Counted from the stretch's first letter, positions 1,883-13,771 are shown. The stretch: 28,392 nucleotides of DNA from an uncultured Aminicenantes bacterium (GCA_965195285.1 CBDAFS010000010.1:1-28392); one strand, 5' to 3'. Notes: generated by a model not told the origin, from the letters alone. Program-made: numbers and translations.

Positions 1883-3409
1883 TTAAAGATACTTATCCAG
1901 GCTCATGACCTTGGGCGGATTGCTCTGCCCCCAGAAATATTGATTGATCAGTTTCAGGGAATCGGTAGCCTCCTGGCCGGACATGAACCGGCCCCAGAAA
2001 ACCAGGTAACAAATCCGGTTTCCCAGGTCGCGTTTCAGAATAAAAAACTGGTCTTTCCGGTCAATCCGGTTGTAGGCATTCAGAACCGACTCTTTCTGGC
2101 AATCCAGCTCCAGCAGAATACTGTGGCTGATACCGGCCCGTTTGAGTTCCTTCTTCCAGGCATCACAGGCCTCGTAAAAATCACCATCTTTAAAATGGAT
2201 AATAGCGGTTTTTCCGGTCTTGGGTTTTTGGGTTGGCTTGACGACCGGGGACACAGATTCTTTCGGAGTCTGCCTGGGAGGAGTGGTCTTCTGCTGAGCT
2301 CCTTTCGCTTTCTGCATTTTTATGACAATGGGCTGGTCTTTATCGGTTGCAGCTTTCGGCTTTTTTTCTGTAACGGTTACTACATCTTTCCGGATTGACC
2401 GGTCTGGTTTTTTATCCGGGGCCTCATCATCCATCAACAAAATGAAAATCAAACCGCCCAGGACAAATATCAGAATAATGAAAATAATGATGTAGCTGAA
2501 TTGCTTTGATTTCTTCTTTTCATCCACGCGTTTTTCCGGCATAGAAAAGGGAGCCTTGGCTCTCGGCGAAACCTCATCAGGTTTTGCCTTCTGTTTTTTT
2601 CCGAAAACAAAGGCATCCTTCTGGGGCATTTTTTTCGGGTCCGCAGATGCCTTGGGATCCTGATCCTCTACCAAAATCGTTTTTTGAACGGGTTTGGGCT
2701 CGATTTTCAGGATCAATTCGCTCAGAAAAAAGAAATAGATAATTTTCAAAATCGAGCCCTGGTGTTCCTCGGGATAGGAAGTAAGAATATTAGCTATGGC
2801 AACCTTACCGTTAAAGCGGCTCAGCAGTGTTTTCTGTTTATCATTCAAATTGTATTTGTTTAACTTTTCTGCATCCGGGTTGCTGCTCAGCATCAATTCC
2901 ATCGAACCGATTTGCTTTTCGATATATTCCTCATCCAGAAACTGGGTAATGTAATTAAATACAAAATTTAAAATATTGATATCAAGATTCAGCAGGGCAT
3001 CGGGCGGAGATTCTTCAACGAACTGGAATCTTCCTTCATCCCACTTTAAAACACTCATCACGATATTTCTGAATTGTTCCTTGGTAGATTCAATCAAATC
3101 CTCCAGGGTAATCATGCCCTTTTCAACCAGGATTTTCCCCTTTGATTCCGAAATATGCTCTTCCTCATTGACCTGGTTGAGTGCTTTTTCATCCAGCAGC
3201 TTCTTGGCCAGCAGTATATTTTCAAGCCGGTCCACATCCGAATTGGATATAGCCGCATAAAATTTTCCCCGGTTGAAATACAGAACCTTCAGCGCCGCCT
3301 CAGGCCCCTCCTTTTTTAAATACAGTACCCCAGAGGAATTTTGTTCAAAAATTGTAATCAACAACTTGACAATTGGAATCTGGCTCAGGGAACCTTTATT
3401 CATGTCCAT
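1883..3409 (-). CDS. DUF4388 (PatA_N-like) domain membrane protein with probable C-terminal SPOR-like domain
   Basis: N-terminal GSLSQIPIVKLL...SGVLYL...LYFNRG...LKWDEGRFQF pattern, one TM helix (YIIIFIILIFVLGGLIFILL), a Lys/Pro-rich linker, and C-terminal YLVFWGRF..QEA..SLKLI resembling SPOR. Confidence 0.7.
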   Translation of the reverse strand: MDMNKGSLSQIPIVKLLITIFEQNSSGVLYLKKEGPEAALKVLYFNRGKFYAAISNSDVDRLENILLAKKLLDEKALNQVNEEEHISESKGKILVEKGMITLEDLIESTKEQFRNIVMSVLKWDEGRFQFVEESPPDALLNLDINILNFVFNYITQFLDEEYIEKQIGSMELMLSSNPDAEKLNKYNLNDKQKTLLSRFNGKVAIANILTSYPEEHQGSILKIIYFFFLSELILKIEPKPVQKTILVEDQDPKASADPKKMPQKDAFVFGKKQKAKPDEVSPRAKAPFSMPEKRVDEKKKSKQFSYIIIFIILIFVLGGLIFILLMDDEAPDKKPDRSIRKDVVTVTEKKPKAATDKDQPIVIKMQKAKGAQQKTTPPRQTPKESVSPVVKPTQKPKTGKTAIIHFKDGDFYEACDAWKKELKRAGISHSILLELDCQKESVLNAYNRIDRKDQFFILKRDLGNRICYLVFWGRFMSGQEATDSLKLINQYFWGQSNPPKVMSLDKYL

Positions 3410-3538
3410 AAAAAGCCTCTTATTTCTTTATACATATATATAACAGCCGGCAAAAAAAATCAAGCCCCCAGGCGCTTATATTTCACAAGGCCAGGTCCGG
3501 GCCGGGTTTTAGCCAGAATTTTAAAAACATTTTATGGT

Positions 3539-3567
3539 TTGACAAACCATATGAAAAGGATTAAAAT
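3539..3567 (+). promoter_or_regulatory. sigma70 promoter for the cobalamin riboswitch/B12 operon
   Basis: TTGACA (3539-3544), 17 nt, TAAAAT (3562-3567). The predicted start at about 3574 coincides with the 5' arm of the riboswitch closing stem. Confidence 0.85.
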
Positions 3568-3573
3568 AATTTT

Positions 3574-3790
3574 TTAAGGCTTGATTCAAGGGAAGAGGCA
3601 AAAGCGCGGATCCCTGTTGATCCCCTTTAAGCCCACAGCCCCCGCTGCCGTGACCGTGGAAAAGTCTTTAAAATGAATCACCACTTCTTCGCCAGCCGGA
3701 GAGGGAAGGTGTTTTAAAGATCCCGGGAGTCGGAAGACCTATTAAGCCTTAACTTTTTATATACATGCTGCGGAGGGCAGTGTGTATAAA
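3574..3790 (+). promoter_or_regulatory. Cobalamin (B12) riboswitch with downstream P13-like hairpin
   Basis: AAGGGAA; CAGCCCCCGCTGCCGTGA (variant of GCCCCCGCnACTGT); CACCACT...GGGAAGGTG; B12-box GAGTCGGAAGACCT. A 12-bp closing stem pairs TTAAGGCTTGAT (3574-3585) with ATTAAGCCTTAA (3741-3752). The hairpin TATACATGCTGC-GGAGG-GCAGTGTGTATA has a GCGGAGG segment that can kiss CCCCCGC. It lies directly upstream of btuB. Confidence 0.92.
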
Positions 3791-3862
3791 TTAAATGCTC
3801 CCTCCAAAAATTTAAACCTGTATTACTCATAAGTTTTGTAATGCAGATTAAAGGAGACTTTT

Positions 3863-5713
3863 ATGTACAAAAAAATCTGTTTCTTTTTTATGTGCCTGGT
3901 ATTGTCTTTCACACTTTTTTCAGAAAAAGCAACATCTGATGAAAAAAAGGAATCCTCTTCTACAAAAAAACCCACTGAAAAATCAATGTTTGTAGAAGAG
4001 GTTGAAGTGTTGGGGAAAATCCCTGTTAACAGGGCCATCCAGAGTGTAACAGTTTACAGCAAGGAGGAGATGGAACAATTCAACAACGAGACTTTAAAAT
4101 CATTATTAAACCAGACAGCAGGATTCCTGGTACTCGGTAGTGGCCATCCCGGTCAGTTCGCCTATTCATTTGCCAGGGGAGCTTCACTAAACCAGACTCT
4201 TTTTCTTATCGATGGCTTTAAAATGACCGATCCTTCAACCTCAATCGGCTTAAATCTGACTTTTGTTTCACCCAATCTATTTGAAAAAATTGAAATTGTC
4301 AGAGGGCCACTTGGTTATATATACGGTTCCAATGCCATGGGCGGTGTCATCAATCTGAAAACCAGAGAAAAGGAGGGCATCGAACTGACAACATTTGCCG
4401 GCAGTCACGGCACTTACGAAGGCAACTTCTACCTTTCCAAAAAGGCAGGGGATTTCAAATTCATCCTGAACGGCAATTTACTGAGGTACAGTGACGGAGT
4501 CGAGAACGATGAATTTAAAAACAGAAGCATTAAAGCAAAGATAGGATATGATAAAGAGGGATTAAAAACAGGATTTATATTTTTTGGGAATTTTGCCAAC
4601 TCCGGTATCCCCTTCAGCATGGGTAATCCTACCCCAAATCGAATATATTCCCAGAATAACTATCTTTTTGCTTTACCCTTCAGTTATAAATTCCCAGGAC
4701 CTACAATCCTTAATATTAAATTGTCCCACAACTATAACATGTATGAATTTGAAGACCCCGACGACACCTGGAATTCATATTTCATGAATAAATCAAGAAT
4801 AAATGAAGCTCAGGTTGCGGTTCGCACAAAACCATTAAAAAATCTATTTATAAATACGGGAATAGATTATTCCGATCAGAAAATAACAAACGAGGATAAT
4901 ACAGAAAAACAACTTGATGATGAAAACACAAATTATATCTCCGCTTTCCTAAATGCCGGACTGGAGCTAGAAAGACTTTTTATATCGGCCTCGCTTCGTT
5001 ATGACAAGTATAGAGATATAGATGAAGAGTTCTCGCCTCAGCTGGGTTTATCTTACCTCTTCTCAGGCATCTTTAAAATCAGGGCTTCTTACTCAGAGAA
5101 TTTTCGCGCCCCAACCCTTCCAGAACTGTTGAATCCTATGTGGGGAAATCCAGATTTACAACCGGAAAAGGGAAAATCTTTTGAAATCGGAGCCGATATT
5201 TACACCAAAGCGGCAACCTTCAGCCTGGTATATTTCAATTCTGAATATAAAAACCTGATCGGGTTTAATCCCACCACCTGGGTATTTGACAATTTAAATG
5301 AAGCTGATATATCAGGAATAGAATTAAGTGCCAGGGTGATCCTATTCAAGCAGATCACATTATGGGCGGCCTACACCTATCTGGACACTTATGATATTCA
5401 GCATGATCAGGAGTTACTGAGACGCCCCAAACACTCGATTTCGGCCATGATATCCTATAAACACAAATATTTTTTCATCTCTGGTGAAATGATCTATGTG
5501 GGTAAAAGACTGGATTACGATGAACTGCTCTGGGAAACCTCTGAAAGCCCCTCTTTCAATACCTTTAATTTCAATCTGTCCATTCCCCTGAATGAAAAAC
5601 TGTCCTTGATCGGAAAGGCTACCAATGCTTTCAATCAGGAATACCAGGAAGTTTTAGGTTATCCGGCCCCGGGAAGCCGTTTCATTTTGGGAATAAAATA
5701 TAAAATAATGTAG
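3863..5713 (+). CDS. btuB: TonB-dependent corrinoid (vitamin B12) receptor
   Basis: Signal peptide, TonB-box-like EEVEV, plug motifs (RGASLNQTLFLIDG; EKIEIVRGP...YGSNAMGGVINL), GNPDLQPE, C-terminal GYPAPGSRFILGIKY. RBS AAGGAG upstream; downstream of a B12 riboswitch. Confidence 0.9.
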   Translation: MYKKICFFFMCLVLSFTLFSEKATSDEKKESSSTKKPTEKSMFVEEVEVLGKIPVNRAIQSVTVYSKEEMEQFNNETLKSLLNQTAGFLVLGSGHPGQFAYSFARGASLNQTLFLIDGFKMTDPSTSIGLNLTFVSPNLFEKIEIVRGPLGYIYGSNAMGGVINLKTREKEGIELTTFAGSHGTYEGNFYLSKKAGDFKFILNGNLLRYSDGVENDEFKNRSIKAKIGYDKEGLKTGFIFFGNFANSGIPFSMGNPTPNRIYSQNNYLFALPFSYKFPGPTILNIKLSHNYNMYEFEDPDDTWNSYFMNKSRINEAQVAVRTKPLKNLFINTGIDYSDQKITNEDNTEKQLDDENTNYISAFLNAGLELERLFISASLRYDKYRDIDEEFSPQLGLSYLFSGIFKIRASYSENFRAPTLPELLNPMWGNPDLQPEKGKSFEIGADIYTKAATFSLVYFNSEYKNLIGFNPTTWVFDNLNEADISGIELSARVILFKQITLWAAYTYLDTYDIQHDQELLRRPKHSISAMISYKHKYFFISGEMIYVGKRLDYDELLWETSESPSFNTFNFNLSIPLNEKLSLIGKATNAFNQEYQEVLGYPAPGSRFILGIKYKIM

Positions 5714-5716
5714 AAC

Positions 5717-5736
5717 GGCAGCCCTTTGGGGCTGCC
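5717..5736 (+). other. Intercistronic GC-rich hairpin after btuB (mRNA stabiliser or weak terminator)
   Basis: GGCAGCCC-TTTG-GGGCTGCC, a perfect 8-bp stem 3 nt after the btuB stop, with no U-tract on the + strand. Confidence 0.6.
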
Positions 5737-5747
5737 CAATAAATATT

Positions 5748-6572
5748 ATGAAAATTATTAAGATATTATTAATTTTTATTACCATTTTCCCATCCCTTAT
5801 CTTTTCCGAAAGAATCATCACCCTGGCTCCGGCCTTAACTGAAATTGTTTTTGCCCTGGGTAAAGGAGACTCTATAGTCGGTAATACACGGTTTTGTGAT
5901 TTCCCTGAAAAAGCCAGAGCCATCACCAAAATCGGTGGCTTTATGGATCTGAATATTGAAATGGTCATCAATCTGAAACCGGATTTAATCATACTATATC
6001 CGGAAAATTTTGAAAAAATGAAAATATTAAAAAACCGAACAAAACTTTTAACTGTCAATCATAAGACTCTGAATCATCTCTATGAGGCCATTACAACAAT
6101 ATCGAAGGAATTGAAGGAAATCACAAAAGGGGAGTTCATGGTCTCAAACATAAAAATAACACTGGAAAATATCCGCAACAAATCTCAAAATAAGAAAAAA
6201 AGGAAGACATTATTAATTGCTGGAAGAAATCCGGATCAATTATCAAACATGTATGTGATCGGAAACAAGGATTTTTTAAACGATATACTTGAGATTTCAG
6301 GTGGAATCAATGCTTACACCGGCAATATACTCTACCCTAATATATCAATCGAATCAGTTGTTAGTATGAACCCGGACTATATAATAGAGCTTTCTGCTTT
6401 CAATCAACAAATTCAAGAAGATAAAATATTAAAGCTTTGGGAAAAATATAAAATAATAACTGCAGCCAGAAGAAACAGAATAATAATTATAAAAGACTCA
6501 TTTTGGTTCAGACCCGGACCCAGGGTTGTAAAAATCGCAGAAAAACTATATGAACTGTTTTCAAATAATTAG
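5748..6572 (+). CDS. btuF: Periplasmic cobalamin-binding protein (helical-backbone class III SBP)
   Basis: Signal peptide; RIITLAPALTEIVFALG...VG.TRFCDFP; LKPDLI; RPGPR motif; operon context. Confidence 0.88.
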   Translation: MKIIKILLIFITIFPSLIFSERIITLAPALTEIVFALGKGDSIVGNTRFCDFPEKARAITKIGGFMDLNIEMVINLKPDLIILYPENFEKMKILKNRTKLLTVNHKTLNHLYEAITTISKELKEITKGEFMVSNIKITLENIRNKSQNKKKRKTLLIAGRNPDQLSNMYVIGNKDFLNDILEISGGINAYTGNILYPNISIESVVSMNPDYIIELSAFNQQIQEDKILKLWEKYKIITAARRNRIIIIKDSFWFRPGPRVVKIAEKLYELFSNN

Positions 6573-6733
6573 ATAATTGTTAACTTCCTGCAAAAAACAC
6601 AGACAGGAATACATTATAAATGCAGTAATGTTGTAAAATGCATTTTAATAAATAAAGATAGAAGAGGATAAAATGTTTGAAGAAATAAAAAAACTATTGA
6701 ATGATTTTGTTGTCAGATGCGAAGTGAGATAAA

Positions 6734-7456
6734 TTGAGAAGTATAAAGAATATTATTGCCGCCTTTCAATTCTTGACATCCATTCCGCTTCCTATAAAAA
6801 CCGACCGTGATAATTTAAATAAATCTATTCTTTGGTTTCCTTTAGTCGGAGCCGTAATCGGATTTATAACGGGCTATGGATATCTATTCCTGAATCAATA
6901 TGTAAGCGATAATCTTTCATCAATATCCGTTATTTTTATTTATTTACTTATTACCAGGGGATTACACCTTGATGGTTATATAGACACTATCGACGGATTT
7001 TTCAGCAGAAAAAACAGACATACAATTTTAACAATAATGAAAGAACCGACAGCAGGAAGTTTTGCGGTTATGGGAACGGGAATATGGTTTTTAACCATGT
7101 TCTCCACACTTCCGTTACTTAAACCCGAAGATCAAATAATAATTCACACCCTGTCACGATTGAATATAATTCTTTTAGCTGTTTTATTTCCCTATGCCAG
7201 GAAAGATGGTTGCGGTAAATTTTTTGTAAAAAGTGTAAATAAAAATACATTTATTCTTGCTATGATTCCAACCTTTATCACCATTTGTTTAATAAATTTA
7301 TCTTATGCTAAATATTTTTTTCTTTCTATTTTAATATCACTTTTTATAGGAATATGGTCAGAAAAAAAGATAAACGGTATAACCGGTGATATATTAGGTT
7401 TTACAGTTGAAGCAACAAACCTTGTTTTATTGGTATCATTGAATATAAAAATTTAA
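6734..7456 (+). CDS. cobS: Adenosylcobinamide-GDP ribazoletransferase (cobalamin synthase)
   Basis: AFQFLTSIP, WFPLVG, TRGLHLDGYIDTIDG and GITGDILG motifs; multi-TM protein; TTG start. Confidence 0.92.
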   Translation: MRSIKNIIAAFQFLTSIPLPIKTDRDNLNKSILWFPLVGAVIGFITGYGYLFLNQYVSDNLSSISVIFIYLLITRGLHLDGYIDTIDGFFSRKNRHTILTIMKEPTAGSFAVMGTGIWFLTMFSTLPLLKPEDQIIIHTLSRLNIILLAVLFPYARKDGCGKFFVKSVNKNTFILAMIPTFITICLINLSYAKYFFLSILISLFIGIWSEKKINGITGDILGFTVEATNLVLLVSLNIKI

Positions 7457-7504
7457 TTGAGGTACCGATTTGCTTTTTTATCTACGATTTTTTTATGGCA
7501 GGAA

Positions 7505-8566
7505 ATGAAAGATTTAAATAAATATATGAATGAAATTGAGGATATCGATACTTTTTTCTCGAAAAAAGCGAGAGAAAGAGAAGATATCCTGACAAAACCC
7601 AATGGAAGCCTTGGAAAACTTGAAGAAATTGCAATTGAAATAGCCGCCATGAAAAGAGAGGAAATCCCCAAGATACACAGAAAAGTCATATTCACCTTGG
7701 CTGGAGATCATGGTGTTGTTGAAGAAGGTGTGAGTGCCTACCCACAAGAAGTAACATCCCAGATGATTTATAATTTTATTGAAGGAGGCGCTGCAATTAA
7801 TATTCTTGCCTCACATGCCGGCTCTGAAATCATTGTGGCTGACTTTGGTGTTGCCTCGGAGTTGAATATTGCCGGCAATAACTTCAGAAATAGAAAAATA
7901 AACTACGGAACCAAAAATATAGCAAAAGAACCTGCCATGACAAAGGAGGAAGCGATAAAGTCAATAATGACGGGTATTATATTGTTTGAAGAAGAATATA
8001 AAAAAGAGAAAATCGATCTTGTAGGTATCGGAGAGATGGGAATAGGAAATACCACGCCTGCGACTACAATACTTGCTGTGATTAACGGAGAAAAAATAGA
8101 AACAATCGTCGATAGAGGAACGGGTATCTCCGATAAAGGATTAAAAAGAAAAATAGCTGCTATTAAAAAGGCAATAAAATTACATAAACCGGAAAAAGAT
8201 AACGGAATTGACATTCTGCAAAAGGTTGGCGGATATGAAATCGGAGGTCTTACCGGAATCATACTGGCAGCAGCAAGAAATAGAACTCCTATTCTAATCG
8301 ATGGATTTATTTCCACATCTGCGGCTTTAATCGCCAAGATATTAAATCCTGTATCAATCAGTTATATAATAGCATCTCACAAATCAAAAGAATCCGGACA
8401 TGAAAAAATGCTGGAAATACTTAAAAAGAAACCCATTTTAAATTTAGATTTACGACTTGGTGAGGGTAGCGGCGCTGCACTTGCCATGAATATTGTAGAA
8501 TCAGCAATCAAAATTTTAAATAAAATGGCAACTTTCGAATCTGCCGGAATAAGTAAAAAAAAATAA
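7505..8566 (+). CDS. cobT: Nicotinate-nucleotide-dimethylbenzimidazole phosphoribosyltransferase
   Basis: LTKPNGSLGKLE, AGDHGV..EGVSAYP, GEMGIGNTT, DGFIS, LRLGEGSGA. Start placed at ATG 7505 after GCAGGA; the ORF is open from 7457. Confidence 0.95.
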   Translation: MKDLNKYMNEIEDIDTFFSKKAREREDILTKPNGSLGKLEEIAIEIAAMKREEIPKIHRKVIFTLAGDHGVVEEGVSAYPQEVTSQMIYNFIEGGAAINILASHAGSEIIVADFGVASELNIAGNNFRNRKINYGTKNIAKEPAMTKEEAIKSIMTGIILFEEEYKKEKIDLVGIGEMGIGNTTPATTILAVINGEKIETIVDRGTGISDKGLKRKIAAIKKAIKLHKPEKDNGIDILQKVGGYEIGGLTGIILAAARNRTPILIDGFISTSAALIAKILNPVSISYIIASHKSKESGHEKMLEILKKKPILNLDLRLGEGSGAALAMNIVESAIKILNKMATFESAGISKKK

Positions 8567-8568
8567 CC

Positions 8569-9858
8569 ATGAAAAAAATCACTTTAATACTCGGCGGTAT
8601 AAGAAGCGGTAAATCATATTTCGCTGAAAAAAAAGCGCTGTTTTATTCTGATAAACCGGTATATATCGCCACTTCGATACCATTTGATGAGGAAACAATA
8701 TATAGGATTAAAATTCACAAAAAAAGAAGAAAATTAAAATTCAAATTAATTGAAGAACCTTATGACCTGACAAAGGTATTAAATAATTTATCCAGGCAAA
8801 CGGTTATTATTGACTGTTTAACTTTAAATTTATCAAACAGGTTGCTATTAAAAAAAAAGAACCTGAATCTTGAAAATTTAATTAAGGATGATGAAATATA
8901 TTTAAATAAAATTTATAAAATCATTAATAAGAATGAGTTAAATATTATTTTCGTTAGTAATGAGGTCGGTTGCGCACCGGTAGAAATAAATAAGCTCGGA
9001 AGATATTTTCAAGAACTTCAGGGAAGATGGAACAGAATAATAGCCGGATATGCAAATGAAGTATATAATGTTCAGGCCGGTATAACGAGAACAATTAAGA
9101 AAGAAGATATTTTTCCCTTTAAAATCAGTGCCCCTTCCTACCTGTTACCAACAGGATATATTGAAAATGTAACCTATTTATTGAATAAGGTGGATGATAT
9201 CCAACTTCTACTTTTTGACAGCATGTCAGACGACCCTTTATTTAAGGACAGTACTATAAACACACTTAATTATTTAGCAGAAGAATCAAATATTACTTAT
9301 TCTATTCATATGCAGGTAAGACCTAAAATATTTGAAGATTATGAAAAAAGATTGGATATAACACTATTTACAATAGAGAAATTAAATAAATTAAATATCA
9401 GTTCATTCATGTTCCATTATGACTTGCCGGATAATGTTAAATGGGAAAATTTAAAAGAAAAAGAAGCCAAAGAAATCGATGATAAATATATTATATTTTT
9501 ACAAACCATAAAAAATAATTTTAAAAAAATCAATATATCTCTTGAAAACACAGAAACTCCCTTATCCGCACTCGATAGAGTCGTCTTAAAATGTGATATA
9601 ACTTATTGTATCGATATTGGCCACCTGCTATTTCAAAAAAGAGATCTATCTGAAATTGAAAGCCGATTAATTAAAACCCGTGTTTTACACATACATGGAA
9701 TTGAAAAAAAAGGAAATAAATTTTGTGACCATAAGGCAATAACCTACAATCGAGACATTTTTAAAATTATTGAGAAATTTAAAGGAATTTTAACAATTGA
9801 AAATTATCATCCAACCCTGTTCGAAAAAAGCCTAAAAGTTTTACAAGAATATTTTTAA
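8569..9858 (+). CDS. cobU: Fusion: N-terminal adenosylcobinamide kinase/Cbi-phosphate guanylyltransferase (CobU/CobP, aa ~1-178) + C-terminal AP-endonuclease-2/xylose-isomerase-like TIM barrel resembling cobamide-remodelling phosphodiesterase CbiR (aa ~182-429)
   Basis: CobU motifs GGIRSGKS, YIAT, RIKIHKKRR, IDCLT, VSNEVG, VQAGI. Then FKISAPSY...NVTYL...VDDIQLLLFDS, SIH, SLEN, CIDIGH, HIHG, DH, LTIE, which fit the metal-ligand pattern of AP_endonuc_2 barrels. One uninterrupted 429-aa ORF. Confidence 0.85.
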   Translation: MKKITLILGGIRSGKSYFAEKKALFYSDKPVYIATSIPFDEETIYRIKIHKKRRKLKFKLIEEPYDLTKVLNNLSRQTVIIDCLTLNLSNRLLLKKKNLNLENLIKDDEIYLNKIYKIINKNELNIIFVSNEVGCAPVEINKLGRYFQELQGRWNRIIAGYANEVYNVQAGITRTIKKEDIFPFKISAPSYLLPTGYIENVTYLLNKVDDIQLLLFDSMSDDPLFKDSTINTLNYLAEESNITYSIHMQVRPKIFEDYEKRLDITLFTIEKLNKLNISSFMFHYDLPDNVKWENLKEKEAKEIDDKYIIFLQTIKNNFKKINISLENTETPLSALDRVVLKCDITYCIDIGHLLFQKRDLSEIESRLIKTRVLHIHGIEKKGNKFCDHKAITYNRDIFKIIEKFKGILTIENYHPTLFEKSLKVLQEYF

Positions 9859-9900
9859 CATAAATTATAAAAATGTATAATATTTTATAAATATTATAAA

Positions 9901-10698
9901 ATGAAAAAGATGCAGAGTAACAGAAATGCCGATTATGGAAATGAAATAGAAATACATGATTTAACCTATCAGATAAAGGGAAAAACAATCCTGAATGATG
10001 TAAATTTAAAAATAAAAAAGAGTGATTTCTGGCTGATTTTCGGTCCCAATGGAGCCGGGAAAACAACTTTATTTAAAATTTTGACTGGATTGATCGGGAA
10101 TTATAAAGGCGAAATTCATGTCGATACCGAGAATATAAAGAAAAAATCAAGAAAAGAAATAGCAAAAAAAATTTCTTACCTCCCCCAGTTTGATGAATTT
10201 TCACTCCCGTTATCGGTAAAGGAAATTCTTCTGGCAGGACGATATCCCTACACTTCTTTTTTTAGGGATTATTCAACAAATGATTACGCCATATTGAATG
10301 AGGCTGTTGAACAATTCGGACTCGACGACTTTCTAAATCGGGACATCAATACCCTGAGCGGAGGCGAGCGGAAAAAAGTCATGCTGGCATCCGCTTTTAT
10401 TCAGGATGTATCCATCATTCTCCTGGATGAGCCATTCACATTTCTTGACCCTCAGGCGGCTTCGAATCTGAAAAAAAACCTGGTCACATTGAATAAGGGA
10501 GGGAAAACCATAATCATCATATCCCACCATATCGAAACTTTATTCCCTCTGGTCAATAAAACAGCGGCTTTGAAATCAGGCAATCTCATCTATTCCGGTG
10601 ATAAGGTATTTGACCGGGATATTTTAGCCAAAACTTATGGAATTCAATTCAATCATCTGGTCCTGGAAAACCGAGAAATCATTTTCATCGATGAATAA
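9901..10698 (+). CDS. btuD: ABC transporter ATP-binding subunit (cobalamin/iron-siderophore type, BtuD-like)
   Basis: Walker A GPNGAGKTT, LSGGE signature, ILLDEP Walker B, H-loop ISHH. Confidence 0.85.
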   Translation: MKKMQSNRNADYGNEIEIHDLTYQIKGKTILNDVNLKIKKSDFWLIFGPNGAGKTTLFKILTGLIGNYKGEIHVDTENIKKKSRKEIAKKISYLPQFDEFSLPLSVKEILLAGRYPYTSFFRDYSTNDYAILNEAVEQFGLDDFLNRDINTLSGGERKKVMLASAFIQDVSIILLDEPFTFLDPQAASNLKKNLVTLNKGGKTIIIISHHIETLFPLVNKTAALKSGNLIYSGDKVFDRDILAKTYGIQFNHLVLENREIIFIDE

Positions 10699-11665
10699 AA
10701 AATATCTTCTGCTTTTGATTATTGGCCTTGTAATGGTAATGTTACTCCCCTTTATCGGAATTATTAACATAAATTTAGCTTCTCTTTTTGAGAACAGCAA
10801 CAGCAGTTTTATCTTCTGGCAAATCCGGATTCCCCGGACATTACTGGGATTCATGGCCGGTTCGTCCCTGGCCCTGGCCGGCCTCATTTTTCAAAATATA
10901 TTTAAAAATAGCCTGGCCACACCCTATACCCTGGGAGTGTCTTCCGGTGCAGCGGCTGGTGTTGTCCTGGGTATCAAACTAAATTTATCCATGACTTTTC
11001 TGGGCCTAAACGGTCTTTATATATACGGTTTTGCCGGGGCCCTGCTATCGATCGGGGTGATCCTGGGAATTGCCCGAATAGTAAAGAGTTATTCAATCTA
11101 TACCCTTCTGATGTCCGGAGTGGCTCTTAATTTCCTTTTCTCATCCATTATCGTACTGATTCAATATCTTTTTGATTTCACCCAGACCATTTCCATCCTG
11201 CGCTGGTTGATGGGAGGAATTACCCCTATCGGGTACAAGGAATTATTGTTTTTATTCCCCCTGTATATTTTTTTCATCCTGGGAACTTATTTTTTGAAAA
11301 ATGAGTTGCTCATCGCATCCGCCGGAGAAGAATTTGCCTATTCCAAGGGATTGGATATTCGAAAATTCAGAATCATTATTTTCGTTGCTGTGTCTTTCAT
11401 GATCGGGATTCTGGTTTCTTTTGTCGGCCCCATCGGGTTTATCGGACTGATTGTCCCTCACACTGCCAGACTTTTATTTAAGAGAGACTTCAAGTTAATG
11501 CTTGGTTTTACCATAATTTTAGGAGGAATGCTGCTGACCTTGACTGATTTTTTGGCCCGCACCATGATTCCGCCGGCCGAAATTCCGGTGGGCATCATCA
11601 CTTCATTGATGGGAGCTCCCTTCTTCCTCTTTGTGCTGATCACCCATTTGCGAAAGAGCCGGTGA
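10691..11665 (+). CDS. btuC: FecCD-family ABC permease (BtuC-like)
   Basis: IRIPR...G..LALAGLIFQ..FKN.LA.PY.LGVSSGA; GPIGFIGLIVPH; EIPVGIITSLMGAPFF. ATG 10691 overlaps the btuD stop by 8 nt. Confidence 0.88.
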   Translation: MNKKYLLLLIIGLVMVMLLPFIGIININLASLFENSNSSFIFWQIRIPRTLLGFMAGSSLALAGLIFQNIFKNSLATPYTLGVSSGAAAGVVLGIKLNLSMTFLGLNGLYIYGFAGALLSIGVILGIARIVKSYSIYTLLMSGVALNFLFSSIIVLIQYLFDFTQTISILRWLMGGITPIGYKELLFLFPLYIFFILGTYFLKNELLIASAGEEFAYSKGLDIRKFRIIIFVAVSFMIGILVSFVGPIGFIGLIVPHTARLLFKRDFKLMLGFTIILGGMLLTLTDFLARTMIPPAEIPVGIITSLMGAPFFLFVLITHLRKSR

Positions 11666-13771
11666 AATAATGCCCCGGATAACCATCATGGCTTCCTCCA
11701 GATAATTGTCTTTTTTCAACTGCTTAAACCATTCCTGCCGGATATCTGCGGCAATTTTCCGCTGCTCCCCGGACCGCTCTTCCGCAGCCCCTGAAACCGG
11801 ATTGAGGGCCGTCCCCAATGAGGAGACGGTTATATGGGGGAATTCTTTCTGAAGCTGATCGATCTCTTTTTGCTGCTGCAGCACTTGCTGCTGTTCCTGG
11901 TAAAAGGTTTCAAAGTGGAGGCTTTTCCGCGTATTTTCCCGGGCAGCGCTTAGATTTTCAACATATAATTTCAGGCCCTTAAAATAGGGGTTACTTTCTA
12001 TTCTCTTTTGACTCTCCGAGGAAAGGCTTTCCAGATCAAGCGGGTAGGCATCCCATTTTGAAAAGGAGACGGCAGTGATGGTATCCCAGGGCAGTGAATG
12101 ATCCAGGTATTTTTCACCAATCTCCAGGTAATCAAAGCGGTCCGGGAAAATAATGTCCGGAATAATCCCCTGGAACTGATTGGAGGAGCCGTTAATGCGG
12201 TAAAACTTCTGGATAGTTAATTTCAATGCCCCCAGTTTATCCATTGCTTTCACATCCCGGCCATCTGTGGTAGTAGCCAGATAACGGTCCAAATCAACCA
12301 TGATTTGAACGGTCCCCTTACCATACGATTGGTTGCCGCCCAGTATAACCGCTCTTCCATAATCCTGGAGAGCCGCCGCCAGTATTTCTGAAGCCGAAGC
12401 ACTCAGGACATTGAGCATGACCACCAGCGGTCCGTTAAACTGGATCTTCCGGTCGGTATCCTTCAGAACCCGGATGCCCTGCTGCCGGTTTTTGACCTGA
12501 ACAATCGGTCCCCTGGAGATGAACAGCCCGGAGATGCGGACGGCATCAATCAAAGACCCGCCGCTGTTGTTTCTAAGGTCCAGGACAATTCCGTCCATTT
12601 GTTTCCGGGTGAAATCAGCCAGAATCTTCTTGATATCATCGGTTGCATTCCGGCCCTTGCTGTTGGAAAAATCCCGATAAAACCGGGGCAAATAGATGTA
12701 ACCGATGGTTTTTTTTATTTTTGAATTATACAGATAGGCGGATTTGGCAAAAGATTCCTCGACAATGACCACATCCCGGACAATGGGGATAACCTCTATC
12801 TGTCCGTCCGGTTTCTTAACGGTCAGCCGGACCAGGGTTCCCTTTTTACCCCGGATCAATTTTACTGAATCCACCACCCGCATGCCCACGATATCCACCG
12901 GTTCTTCCTCACCCTGGGCCACCTTCAATATCGAATCACCGGGCTGCAGCTCCTTCTGACGCCAGGACGGGCCGCCCGGAATGATGCGGGCTACTTTGAC
13001 CAGTCCCCCCTCCTCTCTGAGCAGGGCCCCGATTCCCTCGAATTGACCGGTCATCTCAATATCAAAATCTTCCTTCTCCTTGGGAGGCAGGTAATTGGAA
13101 TGGGGGTCAAACACCTGAACCAGGGCATTAAAATAAAGCCGGGAGGCATCATTTTGACTGGTCTGGAGCATTCTGGAAAACTGGGATTTGAAACTTTTCT
13201 CAACCGATTTGCGGGCTTTTGACTCCAGTTCGGGCGAAAAGTCCTTCTGCTCTTTGACCCGGACCAGATTGACATAATTGATCAGGCAATAATATTTTAA
13301 TATTTTCCGCCAGTATTCCTTCAGCTCCGCCCGGTCCTGACAGTAGGCCCGCTTATCGGCATCCAGTTCCAGAGTTTCAAGCTCTGAGAAATCAAAAGGC
13401 CGGGAGAGGATTTCGGCATAAAATCCCATGACCTCCCTTATCCGCTGCTGTAAACGCTGACTGGCCATGATCATCAGGTCCATGTCCCCCTGTTTCAGCC
13501 CATCATCAATGCGGGTCAGATACGGTTTGAGTTCATCGATGTCAGTCTGGATAAAAAATCGCTTGTTATAATCCAGAATCTCCAGGTATTCCTTGAACCC
13601 CTGGATCGAAAAATCATCATTTATTTTCCTTTCACTATAATGAAAGTTTTCCAGGCTCTGATAGAGAAGCCGGGATAATAATTTTTCCCGGGTCAGATCG
13701 CCCTGCCCCTGAACCAGCTGGCCGGCCAGTAAAACCGCCAATACAATCCGTACAATTATTTTCATTTTCAT
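11603..13771 (-). CDS. prc: Carboxy-terminal processing (tail-specific) protease, S41A family
   Basis: Signal peptide; DPHSNY, PDZ (GIGALL...GGP), VLDLRNNSGGSL, SASASEI (catalytic Ser), YGKGTVQ (Lys), KFYRINGSS.Q..G..PDI. Confidence 0.93.
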   Translation of the reverse strand: MKMKIIVRIVLAVLLAGQLVQGQGDLTREKLLSRLLYQSLENFHYSERKINDDFSIQGFKEYLEILDYNKRFFIQTDIDELKPYLTRIDDGLKQGDMDLMIMASQRLQQRIREVMGFYAEILSRPFDFSELETLELDADKRAYCQDRAELKEYWRKILKYYCLINYVNLVRVKEQKDFSPELESKARKSVEKSFKSQFSRMLQTSQNDASRLYFNALVQVFDPHSNYLPPKEKEDFDIEMTGQFEGIGALLREEGGLVKVARIIPGGPSWRQKELQPGDSILKVAQGEEEPVDIVGMRVVDSVKLIRGKKGTLVRLTVKKPDGQIEVIPIVRDVVIVEESFAKSAYLYNSKIKKTIGYIYLPRFYRDFSNSKGRNATDDIKKILADFTRKQMDGIVLDLRNNSGGSLIDAVRISGLFISRGPIVQVKNRQQGIRVLKDTDRKIQFNGPLVVMLNVLSASASEILAAALQDYGRAVILGGNQSYGKGTVQIMVDLDRYLATTTDGRDVKAMDKLGALKLTIQKFYRINGSSNQFQGIIPDIIFPDRFDYLEIGEKYLDHSLPWDTITAVSFSKWDAYPLDLESLSSESQKRIESNPYFKGLKLYVENLSAARENTRKSLHFETFYQEQQQVLQQQKEIDQLQKEFPHITVSSLGTALNPVSGAAEERSGEQRKIAADIRQEWFKQLKKDNYLEEAMMVIRGIISPALSQMGDQHKEEEGSSHQ

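Follow-up and report, generated by a model that had tools for sequence, protein, structure and literature searches.

Organization of the locus

The DNA analysed here, which we call the window, is a complete 28,392-base contig (C10) of an uncultured Aminicenantes bacterium from sediment, whose binned genome (3.28 Mb in 62 contigs) is 94.87% complete and 1.72% contaminated. On the plus strand of the window, a cobalamin riboswitch is followed by seven genes, btuB, btuF, cobS, cobT, cobU::cbiR, btuD and btuC, for which a role in the import and remodelling of cobamides had been predicted from the sequence alone. Protein identities were assigned with Pfam and NCBIfam models, using the equivalog cut-offs as curated, and RNA families with the Rfam gathering scores. 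The riboswitch and all seven plus-strand genes were recovered in the order and at the positions that the original prediction had proposed.

The centre of the locus encodes enzymes of the nucleotide loop. The product of cobS (6734–7456), an adenosylcobinamide-GDP ribazoletransferase, matched PF02654 at 169.3 bits and TIGR00317 at 123.7 bits (cut-off, 110), and that of cobT (7457–8566), a nicotinate mononucleotide:base phosphoribosyltransferase, matched PF02277 at 433.8 bits. CobT also passed the equivalogs TIGR03160 (433.2 against 319.3 bits) and NF000996 (445.3 against 306 bits, aligned from residue 18); the ATG at 7505 may be its start, as an alternative to the TTG at 7457. The third gene is one open frame of 429 amino acids (aa) at 8569–9858, in which residues 2–178 correspond to CobU and residues 184–427 to CbiR. 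The CobU domain (residues 1–178; 8569–9102) matched PF02283 at 146.7 bits against a threshold of 27. The CbiR domain (residues 184–429; 9118–9858) scored 133.9 bits with the CbiR equivalog NF041277 (cut-off, 105), residues 184–427 being aligned over all 249 of the 249 profile positions, which bears out its earlier description as CbiR-like. With regard to the neighbourhood criterion of Mok et al., the domain is fused to cobU and lies 3′ of the co-oriented cobS and cobT.

The uptake genes surround this group. A BtuB-like TonB-dependent outer-membrane receptor with Plug and TonB_dep_Rec_b-barrel domains is encoded at 3863–5713, and the riboswitch context suggests that it is specific for corrinoids. 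The gene for a BtuF-like periplasmic corrinoid-binding protein of the Peripla_BP_2 family follows at 5748–6572 (PF01497, 105.6 bits). Beyond the fusion gene lie those for a BtuD-like ABC ATPase (9901–10698; PF00005, 114 bits) and a BtuC-like FecCD permease (10691–11665; PF01032, 262.4 bits). The longest frame of the permease gene opens at 10637, and its start is most likely the ATG at 10691, which gives an overlap of 8 nt with the end of btuD.

The CobU–CbiR fusion protein

Both halves of the fusion protein retain the residues expected of their families. Among 22 fusions, the P-loop G9–K15 was invariant and H50 was at least 90% conserved; H50 aligns with the histidine of the solved CobU structure 8yep, which we take to be the GMP-carrying residue of the guanylyltransferase site. 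In the CbiR half, H247, H283, E326, H352, H374 and E411 were invariant among 38 fused and stand-alone CbiR-like sequences, in which D349, H376, D387 and H388 were at least 90% conserved. A profile search aligned the His/Glu motifs of this half with AP endonuclease 2 superfamily members of known structure, including 3wqo, and the conserved His, Asp and Glu positions probably bind metal. An AlphaFold2 model of the whole protein was confident as one body (predicted local distance difference test, 92.3; predicted template modelling (TM) score, 0.87) and joined a CobU fold to an AP-endonuclease-2 TIM barrel. With Foldseek, the CobU half was closest to Akkermansia muciniphila CobU 9vit (TM score, 0.87–0.88), and the CbiR half resembled endonuclease IV 2nq9 (0.71), Art22 (0.69) and MJ1311 3wqo (0.68). 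Sequence and profile searches of the PDB found no solved CbiR structure, the matches being limited to chains of CobU and remote TIM barrels.

A search of 5.8 billion proteins found 88 homologues of the fusion, of which 76 span all 429 residues at 36–97% identity. Several full-length homologues are named Aminicenantes, and the NCBI and JGI records label some members CbiR and others CobU. When the CbiR half was used as the query, all close matches were fusions, and stand-alone proteins appeared only at 26–27% identity. HMMER, run exhaustively against 1.84 billion representatives, returned 478 relatives at E values up to 0.001; only five reached 1e-30 or below, of which three were fusions and the other two were shorter and may be fragments. 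A quick maximum-likelihood tree was built from 63 CbiR-like domains, using CbiR-like sequences without an outgroup from other AP endonuclease 2 families. It placed the 11 CobU-fused rows on one side of a branch with an SH-aLRT support of 100 and a stem of 2.46 changes per column. The CobU-to-CbiR fusion, with its 76 full-length clusters, is a conserved and divergent clade.

The fusion is restricted in its distribution. Among 301 sampled genomes of the class, 11 had any match and seven had a full-length fusion; these seven are all members of a single family, and the three congeners are not among them. CobS was found in seven of the 72 genomes of the family, six of which carry the fusion. Outside the phylum, three spirochaete metagenome-assembled genomes (L040, L041 and L042, species-representative genomes of which two are labelled Leptospirales) encode a full-length fusion at 50–51% identity. 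In L040 and L041, the fusion is preceded by an AdoCbl riboswitch (RF01482), the gene for a TonB-dependent receptor, cobS and cobT. The spirochaete copies nest between Aminicenantes branches in the quick tree, which hints at a transfer of the fusion between phyla. The order cobS–cobT–fusion recurs in relatives, and a cobalamin-type riboswitch lies upstream in five of the ten genomes examined.

CbiR-like domains also occur with other partners in other lineages: with CobU in reversed order (P0165), with CobT (P0174 and P0205), with CobS (P0179), with the precorrin-6x reductase CbiJ (P0206) and with an ABC-transporter ATPase (P0224). Their scatter among the stand-alone sequences of the quick tree suggests that these fusions arose independently. 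A divergent fusion with 37% identity is encoded at 8160–9887 of a contig from another genome (L133, G046:C19), in an open frame of 575–580 aa with no cobS or cobT nearby; CobS was not found in this 91%-complete genome.

Cobamide synthesis and use in the genome

The original prediction had proposed as its check a scan of the whole genome for genes of cobamide synthesis and use. Such a census was carried out by profile searches of the genome and then of the genus (four genomes, namely three congeners and this one) and the family, the source genome being included. The genome yielded no corrin-ring methylase (the sole TP_methylase was RsmI), no CbiB or cobD-type gene, no CbiZ and no PduO-type adenosyltransferase. 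Neither BluB nor BzaF was found above its cut-off; the best BluB scores were 69–78 bits against 150, and the one ThiC-like match to BzaF reached 546 bits against 700. A CobA/BtuR-type adenosyltransferase is encoded on contig C40 (PF02572, 192.2 bits), a CobC-like histidine phosphatase, with the alpha-ribazole phosphatase TIGR03162 as its best model, on C44, and TonB on C43. These three functions had been expected to lie elsewhere in the genome or to be dispensable, and candidates for all three lie elsewhere; the description of the operon as self-contained was too strong, because three functions that it needs are on other contigs.

Cobamide-dependent enzymes were present. The models for NrdJ (649.9 against 399.95 bits), methylmalonyl-CoA mutase (1294.9 against 876 bits) and IcmF (1716.8 against 1500 bits) were all passed, and a three-module MetH-like protein, a corrinoid protein and two B12-binding radical SAM proteins are further users. 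Neither MetE nor NrdD was found in any of the four genomes of the genus. Since the NrdJ model, which also scores in control genomes that are not known to encode a class II reductase, gave a single candidate, the genome probably encodes no other ribonucleotide reductase large subunit. As far as an incomplete, binned assembly can show, the organism appears to be auxotrophic for cobamides and to require them for making deoxyribonucleotides and methionine.

Some weak matches were set aside. A match on C44 with BluB as its top NCBIfam model (C44:15857–17923; L027, L025; 77.8 bits; cut-off, 150) was treated as a generic nitroreductase. Its gene is found two genes 5′ of that for the CobC-like phosphatase, a proximity that may be due to chance. 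Two weak matches to the B12-binding domain were not counted as cobamide users: the translation of C31:68365–69831 reads like an IMP dehydrogenase, and C3:48533–50398 belongs to no NCBIfam family. The latter (L034) is a 621-aa protein with a domain score of 22.9 bits, which may be a false match or may represent a cobamide-binding protein of an uncharacterised kind.

Predicted cobamide remodelling pathway

We consider it probable, at roughly 80%, that the locus is the riboswitch-led operon of a cobamide auxotroph and that it serves both uptake and replacement of the nucleotide loop. The protein families and the enzymology known for them suggest the following route. The BtuB-like receptor, powered by the TonB encoded elsewhere, would carry corrinoids over the outer membrane, and the BtuF/BtuD/BtuC-like ABC importer would carry them over the inner one; the CobA-type enzyme would then adenosylate them in the cytoplasm. 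The CbiR domain would then cut the phosphoribosyl bond, releasing the nucleoside of the old lower ligand and leaving adenosylcobinamide phosphate (AdoCbi-P), which the CobU domain of the same polypeptide would convert to AdoCbi-GDP; the kinase activity of CobU would also let plain cobinamide enter the pathway. CobT would activate the new base, which is expected to be scavenged or a purine because no BluB or BzaF was found. CobS would join the two halves, and the CobC-like phosphatase would take off the last phosphate. Because AdoCbi-P enters at the guanylyltransferase step of CobU, CbiZ and CbiB would be dispensable, as had been proposed, and neither was found in the genome. That the organism takes up any corrinoid and rebuilds a preferred cobamide, as was also proposed, would be a further extrapolation.

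This chemistry has a precedent. The characterised CbiR converts adenosylcobalamin (AdoCbl) to AdoCbi-P and alpha-ribazole, and it cleaves AdoCbl, methylcobalamin and cobamides with other lower ligands to cobinamide phosphate (Cbi-P) and an alpha-riboside; its activity needs anoxic, reducing conditions and metal, and together with CobT, CobS, CobU and CobC it remodels cobamides in Escherichia coli (PMC7733943).

Several scores and comparisons weigh against this interpretation. The top NCBIfam model of the receptor was the B12 receptor TIGR01779, at 219.1 bits against a cut-off of 599.7, and NF007926 gave 206.9 bits against 836. For the importer, the general families PF01497, PF01032 and PF00005 were all matched and the specific equivalogs were not: BtuF NF002894, the top model of the binding protein, gave 97.2 bits (cut-off, 234); BtuC NF003001, the top model of the permease, 192.3 bits (cut-off, 334); and the BtuD equivalog 116.2 bits (cut-off, 281). 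The CobU domain fell short of NF004469 (140.8 against 161 bits), as did the adenosyltransferase on C40 of its NCBIfam model (166.5 against 185 bits) and the phosphatase on C44 of TIGR03162 (135.9 against 162.9 bits). The gene absences apply to a binned, 94.87%-complete assembly in 62 contigs.

The CbiR domain itself bears on a different reading of the locus, namely that it serves only import and cobinamide salvage, for which the CobU kinase, CobS and CobT are sufficient, and that the CbiR-like domain acts on another phosphoester substrate or has a structural role. In the fused clade this domain is only 24–32% identical to stand-alone CbiR-like proteins, from which the long stem of the tree sets it apart, and its activity there is predicted from sequence. 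However, it passes the CbiR equivalog over its full length, retains the His and Glu residues that do not vary among CbiR-like sequences, and in the loci examined is found only next to genes of the nucleotide loop. Moreover, the fusions of CbiR-like domains to CobT, CobS and CobU in other lineages tie the family to the nucleotide loop. We therefore regard a locus for salvage alone as unlikely and favour remodelling.

Leader and transcription of the locus

The leader contains a riboswitch and a promoter-like site, in line with the two regulatory elements that had been predicted for it. A −35/−10 pair at 3539–3567 (TTGACA-17-TAAAAT on the plus strand) matches the promoter consensus at 11 of 12 positions, the best match of the region, and its position directly 5′ of the aptamer fits a promoter; such sites as a whole are not enriched in the region (32 found, 31.2 expected from shuffles). 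The aptamer at 3565–3760 matches the Cobalamin riboswitch RF00174 at 56.3 bits (gathering score, 31.5) over model positions 1–189 of 189. RF00174 was the sole Rfam family at gathering level in the window, and no other cobalamin riboswitch was found in the 3.28 Mb of the genome; a homologous copy lies 5′ of btuB in all three congeners. In the expression platform (3761–3862), the minimum free energy fold of 3755–3880 (−30.7 kcal/mol, z −3.55) pairs the Shine–Dalgarno sequence GGAG (3853–3856) with CUCC (3802–3805). A classical terminator was looked for and rejected, since the leader holds no terminator-like site. Because of this pairing and this absence, the riboswitch looks translational, sequestering the ribosome-binding site of btuB.

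The RNA contig of run X8, at 3324–3682, reaches from within the divergent DUF4388 gene over the promoter-like site into the riboswitch. This contig could stem from divergent transcripts that overlap, from read-through or from carried-over DNA, and it is at odds with a single transcript start at about 3574.

The short gaps or overlaps described in the original prediction were found at most junctions. The genes btuB and btuF are 34 nt apart; cobS and cobT abut, or are separated by 48 nt if cobT starts at 7505; cobT and cobU are 2 nt apart, and cbiR and btuD 42 nt (4.8% G+C). At the junction of btuF and cobS, the description did not hold, the spacer being 161 nt long and AT-rich. No terminator-like site was found on the plus strand between btuB and btuD. 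The btuB–btuF spacer contains a stable G+C-rich hairpin (5717–5736) with an eight-pair stem and no U tract; the fold of 5700–5760 reached −20.7 kcal/mol (z −4.25), and none of 200 shuffles folded as well. This hairpin could set the level of the receptor relative to those of the downstream genes, or stabilise the btuB message.

Contigs of metatranscriptomic runs were mapped to the window. Two RNA libraries gave contigs over the leader, portions of btuB and of btuF, 6604–6962 (spacer and cobS), 9656–10035 and part of btuD. Runs X4 and X6–X14, whose word shares were small, were left aside as evidence of habitat. DNA carry-over is possible in such libraries, the contig ends are not transcript ends, and uncovered parts, such as 7031–8752, do not show absence of transcription.

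Transcription of all seven genes from the single promoter and riboswitch, as originally proposed, is only partly supported. Four observations count against it. Only one of the six junctions, that of cbiR and btuD, is bridged by an RNA contig (9656–10035), and carry-over may account for it. The 161-nt spacer that precedes cobS contains a weak promoter-like site (6645–6674, 9 of 12 positions). In G134, another member of the family, an opposite-strand GNAT gene separates the riboswitch–btuB–btuF unit from cobS, and no second riboswitch was found there. Finally, the platform appears to sequester the btuB ribosome-binding site and not to terminate transcription; control of the distal genes by the riboswitch would therefore be indirect at best.

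These same observations, together with the stable hairpin 3′ of btuB, the start of an RNA contig at 6604 within the spacer and the lack of any contig that bridges 5713–5748 or 6572–6604, would fit a division into at least two transcription units. The riboswitch would then control btuB and perhaps btuF, and the remodelling genes and btuDC would be transcribed from the btuF–cobS spacer. In that case remodelling would not be repressed by cobamide; only the regulation would differ, and the proposed function would stand. Against such a division, there is no plus-strand terminator-like site from btuB through btuD, contig ends do not mark transcript ends, and a riboswitch precedes the cassette genes in G162, L040 and L041. 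In addition, the btuD and btuC genes of the congeners belong to the riboswitch operon, with overlapping btuF and btuD, so transcription through the intervening block is the simplest way to keep btuDC expressed. Separate units are a possibility to which we give appreciably less than even odds, and we retain a single operon as our working interpretation.

The btuF–cobS spacer showed no sign of a further regulatory RNA: no Rfam family, whether a second riboswitch or another RNA, matched at E values up to 1, and its fold was no better than those of shuffles (z +0.42). The sequence reveals a 19-codon open frame at 6673–6732 (plus strand), preceded by an AGAGGA-like site, with its stop 1 nt before the TTG of cobS; it may couple the translation of cobS to its own. 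No conservation of this frame was seen, and no systematic look was taken in relatives.

A probable remodelling cassette within a transport operon

Comparison with the congeners places the remodelling genes within an older operon. All three congeners have the order DUF4388, riboswitch, btuB, btuF, btuD, btuC and tsp, as far as their contigs reach, and in each of them btuF is directly followed by btuD, without cobS–cobT–cobU::cbiR; in congener G138, the two genes were read to overlap at ATGA. The locus of the window has the same flanks, unrelated genes on the opposite strand for a DUF4388 protein and a tail-specific protease (tsp), and the remainder of the contig carries signalling and housekeeping genes. 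Between btuF and btuD, it contains a 3.3-kb block (6573–9945, plus strand) that the congeners lack and that comprises the spacer, cobS, cobT, cobU::cbiR, the AT-rich spacer and a new 5′ end of btuD. The first 15 codons of btuD have no counterpart in the congeners, and residues 16–265 are 64–92% identical to the gene that follows btuF there. The G+C content of 6573–9900 is 30.9%, as compared with a genome mean of 42.2% (standard deviation, 4.6), which puts it in the lowest 2.2% of 3115 windows of the genome; at third codon positions, G+C is 25–30% in the cassette versus 40–51% in btuB, btuD and btuC.

Because the congeners lack the block and its G+C content is low, the cassette looks inserted, and its gain by recombination into an ancestral btuBFDC transport operon is the simplest and most likely reading of these sequences. 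Alternatively, the ancestor of the congeners may have lost the cassette in a single event, since the cassette of G134 also follows btuF. Signs of an insertion of the transposon type were lacking: a search of 6400–10100 for target-site duplications and terminal repeats found none at the boundaries, only AT-rich matches of 69–94% identity. Identity to G138 (L143) is mosaic along the locus, at 92–93% for BtuD and BtuC, 74–76% for BtuB and BtuF and 67% for the neighbouring protease, which suggests recombination within the locus.

The low G+C content, the absence of the cassette from the congeners and the origin of the genome as a bin of 62 contigs would also be expected if a foreign cobSTU–cbiR piece had been misjoined during assembly, or if the contig had been binned from another genome. 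However, contigs from two runs of another study (X2 and X3) are unbroken over 3300–10145 and 5113–11900, bridge both ends of the cassette, and differ from the window by only 19 and 15 letters, respectively. A fusion protein with 97% identity is on record from two contigs, and the flanking genes are syntenic with those of the congeners and G134. Since the contigs of both runs span both boundaries, we consider an artefact very improbable and take the arrangement as that of the organism.

A contig of run X5 (depth, 53.5) lacks one base, at 6736, inside the annotated start codon of cobS. The X2 and X3 contigs, from the same study, share its three other differences and not this deletion, which may be an assembly error or a variant.

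Implications

As a more tentative extension, for which we would claim rather less than even odds, cobS–cobT–cobU::cbiR may be a transferable cassette for cobamide editing that slots into operons for corrinoid transport and crosses phyla, its fusion protein channelling AdoCbi-P directly from CbiR to CobU. If this is true, each imported cobamide would be re-tailed on entry, without the loss of Cbi-P or the futile re-cleavage that the discoverers of CbiR found puzzling. CbiR remodelling has been shown in one organism, for which the coupling to uptake and the means by which destruction of its own product is avoided were left open. A stable CbiR–CobU fusion in a riboswitch-led transporter operon provides direct genomic support for such coupling and offers one polypeptide that can be tested for channelling. 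The source genome appears to be able to re-tail cobamides, whereas its congeners would import but not re-tail them, a difference that may be ecologically relevant in sediments.

Full-text literature searches found no published description of a CobU–CbiR fusion, the 2020 CbiR paper being the only relevant one. No such fusion was found in its text or Table S1, Fig. S3 aside, and Table S1 has no mention of Aminicenantes, Acidobacteria, GWE1, Leptospir, CobU or fused (PMC7733943). As the fused clade was not found in that BLAST survey, genome-based counts of cobamide remodellers would be too low.

Comparison with known systems

The closest described system is the CbiR locus of A. muciniphila, with the genes cobDQ, cbiB, cobT, cobS, cobU and cbiR (Mok et al. 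2020, mBio, PMC7733943). Both organisms place a CbiR-family phosphodiesterase beside cobT, cobS and cobU, lack de novo corrin synthesis, and share the predicted route from AdoCbi-P through AdoCbi-GDP to a new cobamide; adjoining transporter genes, as in the window, were reported for 25% of CbiR homologues. Unlike in A. muciniphila, CbiR here is the C-terminal half of a CobU polypeptide and falls in a divergent clade, the genome yielded neither cbiB nor a gene of the cobD type, and the three genes interrupt a riboswitch-led transport operon between its btuF and btuD.

The CbiZ systems of Rhodobacter sphaeroides and Dehalococcoides are similar in that an unsuitable cobamide is opened and rebuilt with another base, and a link to uptake has been proposed for them as well; as an amidohydrolase, CbiZ produces cobyric acid, so that CbiB and further steps are required (PMC7733943). 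The present genome differs in that neither CbiZ nor CbiB was found in it. With the operons of its congeners, the locus shares the riboswitch, receptor, binding protein, ATPase and permease as well as the DUF4388 and tsp flanks, but the low-G+C block splits btuF from btuD and supplies a new btuD start. Compared with stand-alone CobU proteins (Salmonella 1cbu and 1c9k; A. muciniphila 9vio–9vit), the CobU half keeps the fold (TM score, 0.78–0.88), the P-loop and the histidine, but carries a TIM-barrel domain of 246 residues attached by a linker of about five residues. As a whole, the chemistry could be predicted from known parts; what is new is the CobU::CbiR fusion and its compact cassette in a riboswitch-led BtuBFCD operon.

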